The translations under genes were made by a program, and so were the position numbers. This document shows, piece after piece, positions 3 through 12,542 of a DNA stretch of 64,000 nt (the first letter of the stretch is position 1; each line of letters begins with the position of its first letter). This DNA is from Candidatus Multivorans sp. (GTDB taxonomy: Bacteria; Acidobacteriota; Thermoanaerobaculia; Multivoradales; Multivoraceae): positions 1,056,001 to 1,120,000 of the forward strand of contig OZ251997.1 in NCBI GenBank assembly GCA_965247095.1. The letters are read 5' to 3'. The notes beneath the pieces were generated by a model. That model did no database searches. It was given only the letters and a program-made list of their open reading frames with translations, and had not been told where the DNA came from.

Positions 3-1241
3 GGGTTCACTCTGTGGCTGCGGCGGCGCCCGGCAGCGCCGCTCGAGAGCTGGTCGCTGCGCGCCGGTTCGCGGATGGCGGCGGCGAACGCTTCTCTCAA
101 CCCGGGCCGGAGCCTGCTCTGCGCGGCGCTGGTGGCCAGCGCGTCGTTCGTGATCGTGGCGGTGGGCGCCTACGGCCTGCGCTTCGGCGAGGAAACGCGG
201 GACCTGGACTCGGGGGCCGGCGGCTTCGACCTGGTCGCGGAGGCGGATGTCTCGATTCTCGCCGACCTGAGCAGCGTGGACGGTCGTTTCGATTTGGGTT
301 TCGGGGAAGAGGCCTCCGAGCTCATCGGACAAAGCCAGATCGTCGCCTTCCGCACCGTGCCCGGGGACGACATCAGTTGCCTGAACCTGTTCCAGCCGGA
401 GCGTCCACGGCTGCTCGGAGCGCCGCCGGAACTGATCGAGCGCGGCGGCTTCCGCTTCCAGTCGCTCGTAGATGAGGCCGGGGAGGATCCCTGGAGGCTG
501 CTGGAGCAGGATCTCGGTCCGGGAGTCATCCCCGCGATCGGCGACTTCAACTCGGTCATGTGGATTCTGCACTCGGGCCTGGGCCAGGGGATCGAAATCG
601 AGACGGAGCGCGGCGAGACGGTCGAACTGCGGCTGGTCGGGCTCCTGCGAAAGAGCGTGTTCCAGAGCGAACTCGTGATCTCGGGAGCGAACCTAGCGAA
701 GCACTTCCCGAGCCGGACCGGCGCCTCCTACTTCCTGTTGCGGACACCGCCCGGCGAGCAGGACCGCACGATGCAGGAGCTCGAGCGAACGCTGGGCGGC
801 TTCGGCTTCGATGCGGTCCCCACGGCCCAACGGTTGCAGGCCTTCCAGGCGGTGGAGAACACCTATCTCGGCACGTTCCAGACCCTGGGCGGACTCGGCC
901 TCCTGCTCGGCACGCTGGGACTGGCGGTCGTCCTGCTCCGGAACCTGCTGGAGCGCCGGGGAGAACTTGCCACCCTGCAGGCGATCGGCTTCTGGCGGCG
1001 GGCCCTCGCCTGGCTCGTTGTGGCCGAGAACGGGCTCGTCCTGACCGCGGGCGTAGCCGTCGGCGCCGCGTCGGCGCTGGTCGCGGTGAGCCCGCACCTG
1101 CTCGGCGGACACGCACTCGTGCCGTGGCTCTCCCTCGGCCTGACTCTGGTTCTGGTGATGGCCGCTGGAACCCTGGCCAGCCTGGCCGCGGTTCGTCGGG
1201 TGACGCGGGAGGAGCTGTTGCCTGCGCTCCGGGGGAGCTAG
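3..1241 (+). CDS. ABC transporter permease, FtsX/MacB-like (5'-truncated by window edge)
   Basis: Frame open from position 3; C-terminal FtsX-type TM block LGGLGLLLGTLGLAVVLLRNLLERRGELATLQAIGF. Confidence 0.85.
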   Translation, partial: GFTLWLRRRPAAPLESWSLRAGSRMAAANASLNPGRSLLCAALVASASFVIVAVGAYGLRFGEETRDLDSGAGGFDLVAEADVSILADLSSVDGRFDLGFGEEASELIGQSQIVAFRTVPGDDISCLNLFQPERPRLLGAPPELIERGGFRFQSLVDEAGEDPWRLLEQDLGPGVIPAIGDFNSVMWILHSGLGQGIEIETERGETVELRLVGLLRKSVFQSELVISGANLAKHFPSRTGASYFLLRTPPGEQDRTMQELERTLGGFGFDAVPTAQRLQAFQAVENTYLGTFQTLGGLGLLLGTLGLAVVLLRNLLERRGELATLQAIGFWRRALAWLVVAENGLVLTAGVAVGAASALVAVSPHLLGGHALVPWLSLGLTLVLVMAAGTLASLAAVRRVTREELLPALRGS

Positions 1242-1284
1242 CGCGGCAGTATCGTCGCCGCTTCGCGGCGCGTTTCTTCTCGGA

Positions 1285-1311
1285 AGCCGGCGGGGACGCC
1301 GGCGCACCCAG
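1285..1311 (-). repeat. REP-like hairpin (CTGGGTGCGCCGGCGTCCCCGCCGGCT on - strand)
   Basis: GCCGGCG-GGGA-CGCCGGC stem with CTGGG foot; inverted relative to the similar REP at 2988-3013. Confidence 0.6.
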
Positions 1312-1380
1312 TTTCTGCCGCGCAGGCTTGCATGGAACAAAGTAGCGAAACGGCGGTGGTTCAAGAGGATGCGGGGGTTT

Positions 1381-2700
1381 TCATGCGGCTTGTTCAACGG
1401 CCACGAGCTTCAGGTTGAGGCGTCTGGCCTGTCGCTGGAGGTTCTTGAGTTGGCGTTCGCGCCGGACGGCCTCCATTTCGGCGAGGTCGCGTTCGACGTA
1501 CTCTTCGCCGTGAGTGAGCATGGCGAAGATCGTGCGGCCGAGCTGGTGGGCGGTTGCCTTGACCGCCCTCGCGGTGTCCATGCGGTGCATTCGGCGTCGG
1601 TGGGATGCGCCGATGGCGGTCTTGCTGTTGCGGGCGGTGGTTGCGGCCATTCGCAGCGCCTGGCCGACCCGGTTGGTGTGTTGTCTGGGCTTGCCTTTGA
1701 GGCGTTTGTCGCCGCTGATGTTGGTCGGCGGAGCCAGACACAGCCACGAGCAGAAGTTGCCCTGCGAGGGAAACCGGGACAGGTCCGGGCCGATCTCAGC
1801 GGCAAACGTCAGCGCCGTTTCGACGCCAATGGTCGGGATGGCGACCAGGTCCACTCCGAGCATGCGGTGCAGCCGCTGGCGCAGGGCGTGCTCGCGGACC
1901 TTCGAGTCCGGCGGCGAAGCCTCCCCTGCGCCGTCCTCAGCCAGCTTGTCGAGTTCGGCGTCGATGCGCTCCTCGCACATCTCGATCTGGCCCTGCAGCA
2001 TGTCGTGGCGCGCCAGCGCCTGCCTGAGGGCGAACAGATGCTCGTCGCGCCAATTGCCCTCGAGACTCGCTGCGATCGTCGCCGCGCTCGCCTTGCACCG
2101 GCCGTCACGGTGGCGGGCCAGCACCTCGCCGTCCCGCTCGCCGGCGACGATCGCGCGCACGATGAGCTGGCCGGTCTTGCCCATGATGTCGCTGAGCACG
2201 TTGTCCAACTGCACGTTCATCTGCAGGAGCGCCTTCTGAACGTGCTGCACCGAACGGCTGCGGTCGCGGATCAACTGCCCGCGCTGACGCGTATAGGAAC
2301 GCAGCGGGCACAGCGCGTCCGGCGCACGAAACGCGCTCCGCAGCAACCCGTAGCTCATCAACTGCCGGATCCACTGACAGTCCAACACGTCGCTCTTGCG
2401 ACCGCTCACCTGCTTCGTCGCCTTCGGATTCACCAGGTAGACCTCGAAACCCGCTCGGTCGAGCACCTCGAACACCGGGATCCAGTACACGCCCGTGGAC
2501 TCCAACGCCACCTGCCGCACGCCGTGCGCCTCAAGCCACGACGCCATCGCCTCAAGATCGCATGTGAACGACCCGAAGCTGCACACCGGGCGCTCGAAAC
2601 GCGACGGGGCCACCGCCACGTAGTGCTTGCGCTTGCCCACGTCGATCCCCGCACAATCCGGGTGAACGACCTCCAGACTCTCCGCCTTCCTGCTCGCCAT
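1381..2700 (-). CDS. IS110-family transposase/recombinase (DEDD RuvC-like + Tnp20 domain)
   Basis: GIDVGK, ALESTGVYW, KSDVLDC (D-E-D-D), IPTIG, SWLCLAP-x-N-I-SG serine motif; AGGAGG RBS before ATG 2700. Confidence 0.95.
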   Translation of the reverse strand: MASRKAESLEVVHPDCAGIDVGKRKHYVAVAPSRFERPVCSFGSFTCDLEAMASWLEAHGVRQVALESTGVYWIPVFEVLDRAGFEVYLVNPKATKQVSGRKSDVLDCQWIRQLMSYGLLRSAFRAPDALCPLRSYTRQRGQLIRDRSRSVQHVQKALLQMNVQLDNVLSDIMGKTGQLIVRAIVAGERDGEVLARHRDGRCKASAATIAASLEGNWRDEHLFALRQALARHDMLQGQIEMCEERIDAELDKLAEDGAGEASPPDSKVREHALRQRLHRMLGVDLVAIPTIGVETALTFAAEIGPDLSRFPSQGNFCSWLCLAPPTNISGDKRLKGKPRQHTNRVGQALRMAATTARNSKTAIGASHRRRMHRMDTARAVKATAHQLGRTIFAMLTHGEEYVERDLAEMEAVRRERQLKNLQRQARRLNLKLVAVEQAA

Positions 2701-2727
2701 CTCCAGCACCTCCTGTACCATTCAAAT

Positions 2728-2890
2728 GGTCGCGCTGGACAGAGACCGCGGCGGAAACGTCACTCTTGCATACGGGGTCGCGGCAAAAGCCGCGCCGCCA
2801 GCGTCAGAACGCCGATCACGGTCCGGGCCAAACTTGCATTGCGGGTGCGAACACACCAGTGCTTCGACGGCCTCGCTGCCCAGCGCGACC
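2728..2890 (-). ncRNA. Putative IS110 bridge RNA
   Basis: ~21-bp closing stem (2728-2748 with 2868-2890), two internal hairpins (2779-2794, 2844-2857), each beside a CTTGCAT copy (2765-2771, 2833-2839); A.C mismatches on + become G.U on -; TAGAGT -10-like box at 2893-2898 (-). Confidence 0.7.
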
Positions 2891-2930
2891 CAACTCTACG
2901 CCTCCTGCAACGACCGCAGAATCCACCACC

Positions 2931-3126
2931 CGTTCCCTGCGCGACAGCGCAGCGATACCGCTGTGGGTACTTGCATGGAACAAGCCCCTGGGAACGCGGG
3001 CATCCTGCCCGCATCCGGACGCCGCGTCGTTCCCTGCGCGCCAGCGCAGCGACCTCGCTGTCCCTACTTGCATGGAACAAGCCCTGGTCCCTGTGCGTCA
3101 GCGCGGCACGGACGCCGCGACTCGAC
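2931..3126. repeat. Two tandem ~97-bp imperfect units, each containing CTTGCATGGAACAAG and a REP-like hairpin
   Basis: CGTTCCCTGCGCG(A/C)CAGCGCAGCGA...CGCTGT...TACTTGCATGGAACAAGCCC at 2931 and 3028; both units end in CGGACGCCGCG. Confidence 0.85.
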
Positions 3127-3172
3127 ACCTAGCCCGCATATTTTCCGGACGGTCTGGTCGGGGTCGGCCTGA

Positions 3173-3197
3173 GGGGTGAAGCGCAGCGCTTCACTCC
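3173..3197. terminator. Strong hairpin overlapping the stop of the metallopeptidase gene
   Basis: GTGAAGCGC-A-GCGCTTCAC inverted repeat; no clear U-tract. Confidence 0.4.
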
Positions 3198-6100
3198 ACG
3201 TCGAAGTGGATCACTTCGGTGAAGTCGTGCTGCACGAAGTTGTGGGCCCGGTCGTAGAGCGTCATGTCCGAAACACCCCAGATCCCCGGCGGCGAGCCCG
3301 GCGGCAGGACATGCACCACCAAGTGCTCCTTCCACTCGTCGGGATCATCCTGTGGAAAAACTGAACCTCCCTCGTCATCAGAGGTGTAGACGAGGTGGGT
3401 GATGCCCTGTGGATCGAGAAACTTGATTGCTCCGAAGGTGTAGCCCGAGATGTTGTCGCGGATGCGAAGGCTCAACCTGACGATCGTCTCACCATACGGT
3501 TTATCGATGTTCGTGGGCTCCGCGTCGACCCTTAGCCTGTTCAAGTCGAGCTCAGGCGCCTCGGTGTCCGGGTTGGCAGTGTCGAGTCGGATGCGTTGAG
3601 GCGCTTCGTCCCGTGCCTCCTCGGTGAACCTGGCGGGAGTCCAATTGCCGGCCCGATCACTCATATGAATGAAGTTCAGGGAGTAGGTCGAAGACGGCAT
3701 GTAGTCCGGCATGATAAAGACCACTTCGCACAGCTTCTCGGCAGGTCGAAAGTCACCGTACGCATTCAGCCGATACGTGGTGGCAATCTCGTCGTTGATG
3801 GCGGCCCAGCATGCGTTGTTCTCCAGCATCGCGTTGCTTTCGTCCACCTGCCAACGCGCCTCGATCGACTGAACAACCCGGCCCTCTCGCACCTCCTGGC
3901 CCTTGCTCAACTGCGCCGATCCGGGAACATACTCAGGAGCCGTCCAGTCCTCGAGGGGGTTTTCCAAATACAGTTTCCAGCCGAAATCGTCACCCCTCTC
4001 GAATCGCTCATTGCCGACCCGGTCGGCAATGACGAGCTGCGTTGGAAGCCAGTATCCCGCCTTGCTGTACTTGCTCAGCGTCTCCGTGCCTACAAGGATG
4101 GTGCTCGCTTCGACCGGGTTGCCGTTCTCGTCTACAGAACCGAGATCCAGGTCAAAATACCTACCGATACTGCTGTTCACCCGCGTGCTTGCAGAGGCGG
4201 CGCCCTCGAGAACCCGGTCGAGGGCATGCAACTCGATTACAATGCGGAATTCCTTGTCCTCCTGAGGTCCGCCCGTCACGGTGATGTCCACCCGACGAAC
4301 CTTGCCGGGAAACACGTAGTCCGGAAACAAGTTATAGACCGGAAACGTCAAGTCCTCCCGGATCTGCGTGAGGTACAGATTCCCCTGCATGATCCGGTCC
4401 CGCACGAACTCGTACTTGGCAACGGATCGGGACCTCAGCTTGTCCGGCTCGATGATGAAGTACGAGATGGTCTCGGCCATGTCCTCGTTGGGGTTTTTCT
4501 GGTGCCCGTAGGCCGAAACGAACTCCGTCTGCTTGGTAGTGGACCAGCCCGAGGGGCTCTCCGGATCCTGATACCAGCCGCCAAGTTCTATCCAGTCGTC
4601 CAAGGTCGGTTGGTCGAAAACATGAGCCCAGAGGAAGTGCGCTTTCTCGTGGATCACCAGGCGTTGGACGTGGTCGACGTCACGCGAAAGGAAGGCTCTG
4701 TCCATGAACTCGATGTAGCCCGCGTCCGGCCAGGCGACGGCTGGGGCCGCCGGGTACAGGGGATGAGGCGTGCCGTCGAGGCGCGCCGGATGACGTGCCT
4801 GAGGCCCTGCGTCTTGTGCATGCCGCTTGGAAACTCCTCAAGCATGTTGAGCAAGGTGATGATCTCCTCGGCGTGGAAGCGCTGGAAACGGCCCGCACCT
4901 TCGTTGCCGGTCGGCCACGTCAGGCCTGCGTAGTCGGTTACCTCCGTCGTGACGCCGTACCGTTCCCGGAAGATCCTCTCGTAGGCGACTCGGTCACGGC
5001 CGTTGTCCGTCAAGTAGCGCACGACAGCGTGGTGCAGTCGTTGCGAGAACCAGGTTCCCCGCTTGCCGTCCACGGTCACCACGCGTGGATTGGCATTGAC
5101 GAAGGCGGCTTCGGAGATGAAGACGGTGGGGGAACCCCGGTGCGTCCCGATCTGGATGTCGCCGTGAATGAAGCTGGGCGTCAGAAGCCACTGAGAAGGG
5201 ACCAGAGACTGTTTGCCGTATGGGTTCCTTAGGTCCTGCGGGATGGAACGCATGGTCGTCAGCAGCCGCCAAGCGTGTTCCTGCGACCAGGAAGCGTCGT
5301 CGGAATCCACAAGCAGGAGGTTGTAGTCATACGCCAGGATGTTCGCGGACGAGTTGTCGGCCACCCGGACCGTCTCACCCTCGAACTCGACCTCGAGCGG
5401 TCTGTTCACGGCCGCCGAGTACTCGGTGCCGGCGGTGCTCTGATCCTCTTCCCAGTGGAAGACGAACGGGTCCGAAGGAATCGGCGTCAGGTCGAACGGT
5501 TCGACGAGGCCCGTATGCGGAAGCTCGATCAGCCGTGCGGGCGTGGCGCGATAGCCCTCGGCGCGCGCTTTGACGGCGTACTTGCCGGCGGCGAGGTCGT
5601 GGAATCCGAACCAGCCGGAGGCGTTCGGGTTCGTGACCTGGAGAACGCCCTTGGCGGTAAGCAGTACTTCGACATCCTCGTAGGCGCCGAGATAGCCGAT
5701 GACCTGGCCCTCGAACGAGTGTTCTCCTTTGACAGGGTCATCGTCGGCACAAGCGAACGCCTCGAGGTCGCTCGTCGCCGCGGCGGTCTGGTTGAAGCGG
5801 TTCGTGTGCGTCCAGGGGACGTCGCCGCCGGGGGACTCGATCGAGAGGTTGAACGCGAGGGTCGTCACCGGCCCGACGAACACCCAACGGTGGCCGTTCA
5901 CGGCACACCCGTCGAGCACCTTGATCAGCACCTCCGCATTGTCGCGATGGAAGAAGTACAGGATGGCGGATTGCTCGGAGTTCAGACCGTAGTCCCGCAC
6001 CTCCTCAAGCACCGATTCGCCCTCTCTGACGTGTTCGACCCACATGTTGACCGTGAAGCCCGGTCGCCGTATCGTCGACGCGCAAGTTAAACGCCAGCGT

Positions 6101-12480: not shown

Positions 12481-12482
12481 GA

Positions 12483-12542
12483 GTCGAGTCGCGGCGTCCG
12501 CGCCGCGCTGACGCACAGGAAACATGGCTTGTTCCATGCAAG
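12483..12542 (-). repeat. Dispersed 60-bp repeat carrying the IS110 junction motif
   Basis: Reverse complement is 56/60 identical to 3067-3126 and begins CTTGCATGGAACAAG. Confidence 0.9.

Follow-up and report, generated by a model that had tools for sequence, protein, structure and literature searches.

In a 64,000-nt stretch of a Candidatus Multivorans genome (the window, by which we mean the whole stretch that was analysed), a gene-less unit of 97 bp, m97, stands in tandem with an intact IS110-family element. We consider it probable that this unit is a MITE-like, non-autonomous derivative of such a bridge-RNA-guided element, supplied in trans and stacking beside its kin through a guide that matches in the target and donor loops of the bridge RNA. 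The observations behind this proposal are the anatomy of the units, their census in the genome, insertion polymorphism exact to a CT dinucleotide, covariation between guides and flanking DNA, and the order in which units follow one another in arrays. An earlier reading, made from the letters of the window only (the sequence-only reading), had suggested a mini-IS110 with arrays arising from a match between donor and target; that suggestion is supported by the comparative evidence, which favours it and from which we infer transposition.

At the bridge-RNA end of the element lies a 57-nt direct repeat, 88% identical between 2931-2987 and 3028-3084 and thus 97 nt from start to start, which bears out the recurrence of the IS end and its junction motif 97 bp further on that the sequence-only reading had described. 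Two further details of that description are confirmed: the stem of the hairpin is kept while its loop changes (CAGCG-ATAC-CGCTG at 2950-2963, CAGCG-ACCT-CGCTG at 3047-3060), and different DNA follows the two junction motifs, the first leading into a REP hairpin common in the genome (GCGGGCATCCTGCCCGC) and the second into the hairpin of an older 59-bp unit, R. The motif itself, the 14-mer CTTGCATGGAACAA, has exact matches in the window at 1327, 2970 and 3067 on the plus strand and at 12529 on the minus strand, four copies against an expectation of 0.09 and a number reached in 0 of 100 shuffles. Because these 14 nt are common to both junctions, the point of crossover is unreadable from the window locus alone, and it was comparison with relatives that placed the core, CT, at positions 1-2 of the 14-mer. 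The unit proposed at 2977-3073 accordingly retains its period of 97 bp and has its limits moved to 2972-3068, and it is, as had been supposed, a gene-less unit with IS ends, made up of a 12-nt distal end, a REP and a proximal end module without any ORF. The features of the locus, and the units and arrays found elsewhere in the genome, are collected in Table 1.

Table 1. Features of the window locus (window positions) and related units and arrays in the whole genome (positions marked genome).
Feature	Position	Strand	Basis or remark
T-REP, palindromic REP-type repeat	1239..1326	+	Its right end, ...GCCGCGCAGG, supplies the left half of the IS clade's primary target
Core CT, outer junction, regenerated target A-N-G-CT-TGCAT	1327..1328	+	Single CT in G050 empty site
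Full IS110-family element, 1643 bp including terminal CT	1329..2971	-	Second genomic copy
Recombinase ORF, 439 aa	1384..2700, stop 1381-1383	-	Intact in both genomic copies
Putative bridge RNA core, 161 nt, 12-bp outer closing stem	2729..2889	-	RNAalifold covariation
Loop 1 5' arm, RNA GUCGAAGCAC, putative left target guide	2859..2868	-	Homologous arms against flanks in two lineages
Loop 1 3' arm, RNA AAUGCAAG, putative right target guide, complementary to CT+TGCAT	2833..2840	-	Flank covariation
Loop 2 3' arm, RNA UAUGCAAG, putative right donor guide, complementary to CT+TGCAT at the transposase-distal IS end	2765..2772	-	Distal-end match
Terminal module, bridge-RNA-proximal IS end: sub-terminal hairpin 2950-2963, then GCGCTGTCGCGCAGGGAAC	2932..2969	-	Kept in every mini unit
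Core CT, IS/m97 junction; same sequence as the circle (donor) junction	2970..2971	+	Direct reading
m97, 97-bp non-autonomous unit	2972..3068	-	3 full-length copies in the genome
m97 parts: distal IS end, 12 nt; REP; proximal module, 38 nt (hairpin 3047-3060); terminal CT	2972-2983; ~2986-3018; 3029-3066		
R, older 59-bp mini unit: 12-nt distal end and ~45-nt proximal-end-like module	3069..3127	-	31 copies in the genome
CCTAG, right half of primary target	3128..3132	+	G050 empty site (as CCTGG); 15/15 OZ245033.1 IS copies
Full IS, 1643 bp, 2 copies	second at genome 4033479-4035096		Second 98.95% identical over 1620 nt (BLAST)
m97, 3 full-length copies at 3 loci			Two identical, differing from the window copy at 8/97 positions
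m144, 5 full-length copies at 4 loci and 2 degenerate			100, 100, 100, 99.3 and 99.3% identity
R-R tandems	genome 2035514/2035573 and 196518/196578		
Array IS-m97-R	window		Read on window plus strand
Array m144-IS-R	genome 4033303		
Array m144-m144-R	genome 2636724		
Array m97-R	two loci		
Array m144-R	two loci		

The parent element has the features by which the IS110 family is recognised. Its recombinase combines a DEDD domain of the IS110 N-terminal type (DEDD_Tnp_IS110, PF01548, 5.3e-25) with a C-terminal Transposase_20 domain (PF02371, 2.7e-12); it has no terminal inverted repeats, carries CT at both junctions and occupies a site that shares only the core dinucleotide with the circle junction, and in its putative bridge RNA both 3' arms covary, as does the 5' arm of loop 1 in two lineages. 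The recombinase ORFs of the two genomic copies are both intact and lie 3 aa apart. The copies, both of 1643 bp, are wholly different over some ~16-23 nt inside the distal end (window 1334-1356, genome 4033454-4033476). The idea that stacking beside a resident end recreates a junction promoter was dropped, a sigma-70 scan of 1250-3250 having returned 0 sites.

The 14-mer has 28 copies in the whole genome (G000; a single contig of 4.62 Mb with 67.7% G+C), and consecutive copies are spaced in four classes only: 59 bp once, 97 bp three times, 144 bp five times and 1643 bp twice. Exact 14-mers give the 59-bp spacing only at 2035507/2035566; the other R-R tandem, at 196511, is linked through a motif with one mismatch. 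All three mini units, m97, m144 and R, share a common build that consists of the 12-nt transposase-distal IS end, a filler and about 40 nt of the bridge-RNA-proximal end, bounded by CT. In seven mini-unit copies a stretch of 45-46 nt agrees with the IS end at 100% identity, compared with 84.8% in the window m97, and the three m97 and five m144 copies are without exception at R junctions. These units therefore resemble MITEs in that they carry both ends of a parent without its transposase and are dispersed as copies at the parent's target site. Extracting what lies between consecutive motifs genome-wide, as the sequence-only reading had proposed, thus returned classes of units, and neither arrays longer than three units nor cargo genes: the mini units contain no ORFs and the recombinase is the sole gene in any array. 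Arrays of motif, unit and motif were a further prediction of that reading; a half match predicts them too, and seven arrays with IS-type units, none of more than three units, are present in the genome. Its loose analogy with integron or CRISPR arrays is not supported for a system of four unit types (59, 97, 144 and 1643 bp) that lacks cargo genes and does not exceed three units per array.

The interiors of m97 and m144 are an abundant REP, of which BLAST finds 172 interior-only matches. The sequence-only reading had supposed that the unit might spread such repeats, but 172 solitary copies against 3 within m97 units lead us to the opposite relation, in which the REP was captured by the unit and not spread by it. 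The genome has no second copy of the subtype to which the window m97 belongs, so that its mobility at present is doubtful. Two longer, degenerate m144-like units were also seen, at genome 1283531-1283736 and 1045985-1046084; the former is situated directly within a CT-CCTAG site, without R, and the m144 family would therefore be older than the present IS variant. Separately, a repeat of ~1.14 kb, 98-100% identical, occurs in at least four places in G000 (one of them 2635257-2636399) and also in relatives G024, G049, G050, G053 and G056, and is probably another mobile element.

The ends and the core were placed with the help of an IS that is 83% identical in DNA and present in many copies in G024, of the same genus, and in the Candidatus Multivorans record OZ245033.1. 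On the window plus strand the junctions of this G024-type IS read ...GCCGCGCAG(T/G)-CT-TGCATGGAACAA...(IS)...GCTGCGGACA-CT-CCTAG, and the flank CTAGG-AG is found at all 15 IS copies in OZ245033.1 and at 12 of the 13 in OY762279.1. On the basis of these junctions and their constant flank we take the core to be CT, which reads AG in transposase orientation. R is an exact miniature of the G024-type IS, with CT, TGCATGGAACAA, a proximal-end-like ~45 nt, CT and CCTAG in the same order; in the window its terminal CT has mutated to CA. T-REP has the primary target, GCGCANN-CT-CCTAG, at its right end, and 29 such sites are still unoccupied in G000. T-REP adjoins IS copies at non-orthologous loci of G024, and a G024 locus (L014/L114), considered as the orthologue of the window locus, was rejected when BLAST showed only T-REP to be in common. 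The presence of T-REP itself varies between species, right after a TAG stop codon: G050 has it, and it is absent from G055 and G056.

A series of states comes from the orthologues of the 2636724 locus. G055 and G056 are without any repeat there, T-REP included; G050 has T-REP with an empty site, ...gttctgcggcgcacg-CT-CCTGG, in which CT is single; G049 has a 57-bp unit followed by R, the 57-bp unit being composed of the 12-nt distal end, filler and the proximal end of the window IS; and in G000 two m144 units and R add 347 bp, exactly from CT to CT. At the window's own locus, metagenome contigs from other studies hold only R. In a contig of run X7 (depth 55.8) position 1326 is joined to 3067, which omits 1740 bp, the sum of 1643 and 97, with 14 nt of ambiguity; on its right this contig covers 534 nt of unique flank, in which there are 6 differences, and on its left only 31 nt, in repeat, and the depth of the IS in the same run is ~2. 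Run X1 gives a similar join; the assemblies of X3 and X5, two runs that probably represent the source sample, are interrupted at the repeats. The comparison of unit number that had been proposed for strains or reads, made here between relatives and metagenome contigs, revealed polymorphism of whole arrays and of IS and m97 together, and none of m97 by itself. At locus 3612064 the relatives offered no intermediate state, only other repeats or none, and a genus-wide search with the window flanks returned no syntenic orthologue with both flanks together. The assembled contigs gave no direct view of a circle junction, of an excision product or of a change in unit number.

The unit is also not confined to the window, since it occurs at three loci in the genome and in other species, whereas the sequence-only reading had named restriction to this one place, as a simple local duplication, as what would count against it. 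Units related to m97 were found in G016, G013 and G053, and related mini units in G016, G013, G019 and G049; in G016 the m97-like units are directly in CT-CCTAG, as expected for the other guide type. In Candidatus Foliamicus (loci L064 and L067) an IS is followed by a tandem unit of ~125 bp and then the usual flank, the unit being an internal deletion of that IS which retains ~45 nt of one end and ~70 nt of the other. Recombinases with 75-78% protein identity occur in records titled Pseudomonadales, Candidatus Foliamicus and Azotimanducaceae (Gammaproteobacteria; loci L044-L107), and their presence there and in an acidobacterial host suggests that the IS clade has spread across phyla.

To examine the RNA, the 5' UTRs of 17 related IS lineages, out of 77 loci, were aligned and 14 of them folded with RNAalifold. 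The fold is closed by a stem of 12 bp and comprises two modules, both of which contain an internal loop, and 13 of its 52 pairs show compensatory changes; it was adopted because folding the single 5' UTR sequence did no better than shuffles (z = -1.49). An Rfam scan of 1200-3300 at E <= 1 returned no bridge-RNA family and only gntR-DTE, at 22.2 bits against a gathering score of 63.6. Leaving out three of the 17 lineages, whose flanks are unreadable, the 3' arm of loop 1 equals the 7-nt flank at the proximal IS end exactly in 12 of 14 and with one mismatch in the other two, over six different 7-mers (CTAGGAG, CCAGGAG, ATGCAAG, ATGAAAG, ATGCGAG and ATGGAAG). At the distal IS end it is the 3' arm of loop 2 that equals the terminal 7 nt, with three 7-mers represented (ATGCAAG, ATGCGAG and ATGGAAG). 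On the left side, the 5' arm of loop 1 reads GCGCAGGC in the G024-type IS, where the flank is GCGCAGG-CT, and CGCGGGC in the OY762279 IS, where it is GCGCGGG-CT; that of the window IS, GUCGAAGC, matches its flank weakly, at A-N-G only, in 7 of 7 arrays. Visual inspection of the 5' UTR alignments revealed no left donor guide, the 5' side of loop 2 being almost invariant, and ACGCU (DNA 2800-2804), considered as the right target guide, was rejected because it is nearly invariant and on the 5' side of loop 2.

In the window IS the 3' arms of loop 1 (AAUGCAAG) and loop 2 (UAUGCAAG) both carry AUGCAAG and specify CT+TGCAT, and so the right half of the target is the right half of the donor. The match between donor and target claimed by the sequence-only reading is therefore present in one half, the right. 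A loop-1 arm resembling an IS end is found in 7 of the 17 aligned lineages. It is the lineage's own donor arm in the window IS, in Candidatus Foliamicus L066 (next to a mini unit) and in L101, and corresponds to the end of another lineage in L063/L081, L069 and L089. The last two are reciprocal: AUGCGAG, the donor arm of L089, forms the loop-1 3' arm of L069, which in turn has as its donor arm the AUGGAAG that L089 carries in loop 1. As a separate observation, at the distal junction of L055 (OY762279.1) an IS copy abuts ...TTTGGCCCGGACCGTGATCGG, the DNA after the loop-1 guide within another IS copy, and this IS has apparently inserted into guide-encoding DNA, a target mimic.

The proximal termini are more variable, reading TACCCAC, TAGGGAC (the window m97), TCGAGTC (R), TGTCCGC and TTCTCGC. 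As the first three differ although their units would be expected to share one donor loop, the window m97 may be a poor substrate or the relic of another sub-lineage. What all units keep, over 12 aligned sequences, is the sub-terminal hairpin followed by the block GCGCTGNCGCGCAGGGAAC. The five pairs of this hairpin are formed in 91.7% of cells, against 11.7-60% when it is slid along the alignment; two pairs show compensatory change, and the covariation score was reached in 0 of 500 shuffles. A stem-loop has been described in the targets of ISPpu10 (bioRxiv 10.64898/2026.03.19.712850), and by analogy with it the hairpin may replace sequence recognition on the proximal side.

Together these data suggest how stacking could proceed. 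m97 would keep only what is needed in cis, which on the plus strand is the 12-nt distal end TGCATGGAACAA, a filler (the captured REP), a proximal end of ~40 nt with its hairpin, and CT, and the neighbouring IS would provide the recombinase and RNA in trans. Given that the 3' arms of the target and donor loops share AUGCAAG, the preferred target of the window IS would be A-N-G-CT-TGCAT, the outer junction of any resident R, m97, m144 or IS. Insertion of a predicted circle, LD-CT-RD, into a target LT-CT-RT in which RT equals RD would leave LT-CT-RD on the outside, which is the target again, and LD-CT-RT, a donor-like sequence, at the inner junction. With the target rebuilt outside and a donor-like junction inside, units would stack head to tail, the matching guide being the presumed cause, and excision could follow between any two junctions.

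The order of units in the genome is consistent with this scheme. In each of the seven arrays the IS-type units are found beyond the distal end of R, and in none between R and CCTAG, and the three bases before the outer CT are A-N-G in all seven, compared with 2 of the 9 unoccupied R copies that have the exact motif (Fisher one-sided p = 0.003). This A-N-G matches the last bases of the 5' arm of the window IS, GUCGAAG. That R copies with a mutated 14-mer are unoccupied also fits. Against the scheme, one perfect site, at genome 296187, is unoccupied. An R unit elsewhere in the window (12482-12542, minus strand) is unoccupied and has the exact 14-mer, and its flank, GAT in transposase orientation, misfits A-N-G. 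An IS of the other guide type can be accompanied by tandems too (G019 L029/L030; OZ245033.1 L032), from which it follows that a matching guide is not required for stacking. More tentatively, and with the balance tilting slightly against it, the target loops of this sub-clade may have evolved to aim at the ends of their own family, those of the same lineage in some cases and those of a sister lineage in others, giving self-extending stacks with gene-less satellites of 57-144 bp.

That tandems exist in genomes whose IS has a CUAGGAG guide raises the alternative that stacking is a by-product of donor-loop recombination at sites with a half match (RD-only), the identical loop-1 arm being incidental. 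IS621 does recombine at sites that match the core and one arm, RD-only sites included, and RD-only insertions account for 3.6% of reads and LD-only insertions for 1.1% (Xie et al., bioRxiv 10.64898/2026.08.31.748434), and one-sided donor matches have been reported at the boundaries of tandem units (Hu et al., bioRxiv 10.64898/2026.08.14.744561). The half match in IS621 is off-target activity of the donor loop; in the window IS it is the natural target loop that specifies the donor's right half. In 7 of 7 cases the arrays of G000 extend in the direction expected from the AUGCAAG target arm, whereas the single IS-R tandem of OZ245033.1 (L032) is on the opposite side, and a target arm that resembles an IS end in 7 of 17 lineages, at times aimed at the end of another lineage, looks selected and not incidental. 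We therefore regard the incidental by-product as unlikely.

The abundance of the interior REP, with its many solitary matches, and the likeness of the IS end module to R would both be accounted for if the units were REP/REPIN-type repeats spread by another enzyme, for example a RAYT, and the IS merely targeted them, its end being derived from or mimicking the target. Such repeats would not be expected to resemble the IS at both ends with the similarity stopping exactly at CT, to share 45-46 identical nt with the IS end in seven copies or to be found only at the IS target junction, and the mini units of Candidatus Foliamicus (L064, L067) bear the ends of their own lineage's IS, ~70 nt of distal end included, so that this explanation appears very improbable. 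Finally, the identity of the two tandem m144 copies, the status of the window m97 as a diverged single copy of its subtype and the view of the CazIS110 preprint that tandem repeats are transient by-products might point to local duplication, or unequal crossing-over between short repeats, with nothing mobile any longer, but this is hardly credible for mixed arrays (IS+m97+R, m144+IS+R and, in G049, 57+R), for the same units at unlinked loci and for a unit that is unlike the IS except at its ends.

Derivation of m97 from the IS, which we continue to favour, places it beside systems already in print; the phenomenon in general is known from MITEPpu9 and the 2026 preprints, and no new kind of system is involved. 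The closest precedent is MITEPpu9 (the ssr9 module) of ISPpu9 in Pseudomonas putida KT2440, a non-autonomous unit that has copies of both IS110-family element ends as its borders; it is found in tandem beside the IS, occupies REP-type targets on its own as well, and is tandem-duplicated in some strains (Pares-Guillen et al., NAR 2025, PMC12288879). Minicircles of the IS, of IS plus unit and of the unit alone depend on the transposase, and the crossover at AG in transposase orientation (PMC12288879) has the same strand relation as in the window IS. MITEPpu9 differs in having an sRNA gene, whereas the present units are gene-less and of 57-144 bp, and the arrays here hold up to three units of mixed types. 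In the parts of that account drawn on here no identity of target and donor guides is reported, whereas in the window IS the right arms of both loops match; and the mobility of MITEPpu9 has been demonstrated, whereas that of m97 is deduced. Hu et al. (bioRxiv 10.64898/2026.08.14.744561) describe tandem non-coding units beside IS110 transposases (n = 468) with one-sided donor matches, and the units of G000 are like these in being non-coding and stacked at an IS110 end with boundaries of that kind. Insertion is said in the cited part of that preprint not to regenerate the target, whereas the sequence logic of the window IS predicts that it would, and the present units are, in addition, found alone, far from any IS, and in species in which no IS match was found.

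For the RNA the reference is IS621, in which a 5'-UTR bridge RNA has two internal loops and the core is CT, the left guides being the sense of the left half and core and the right guides, on the 3' side, complementary to the core and right half (Durrant et al., Nature 2024, PMC11208160). The putative RNA of the window IS fits this architecture on the strand on which the core is CT. Compared with what is described there, the gene is inverted relative to the CT strand, with the core reading AG in the transposase direction, the right guides are of 7 nt, and there is neither a recognisable left donor guide nor an Rfam match. In the literature searched, with preprint supplements outside its scope, we found no natural target loop specifying the donor's right half, no targeting of kin between lineages and no units of so small a size as 57-59 bp.

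Should this interpretation be correct, the DNA that a bridge recombinase needs in cis could be as little as 12 nt at one end and ~40 nt with a hairpin at the other, in whole units of 57-59 bp. The identity of the right target guide with the right donor guide would constitute a natural target-recreating configuration, contrary to the current IS110 literature, and a serial-insertion mode that regenerates its landing pad, which we did not find described for IS110 in the literature searched, would be of practical interest for the serial stacking of payloads at one site. For the organisms themselves, small repeats in these genomes would be the layered products of one RNA-guided system, with a REP-type target, then the 59-bp unit, and then the 97- and 144-bp units together with the IS, a view that would help in annotating them.
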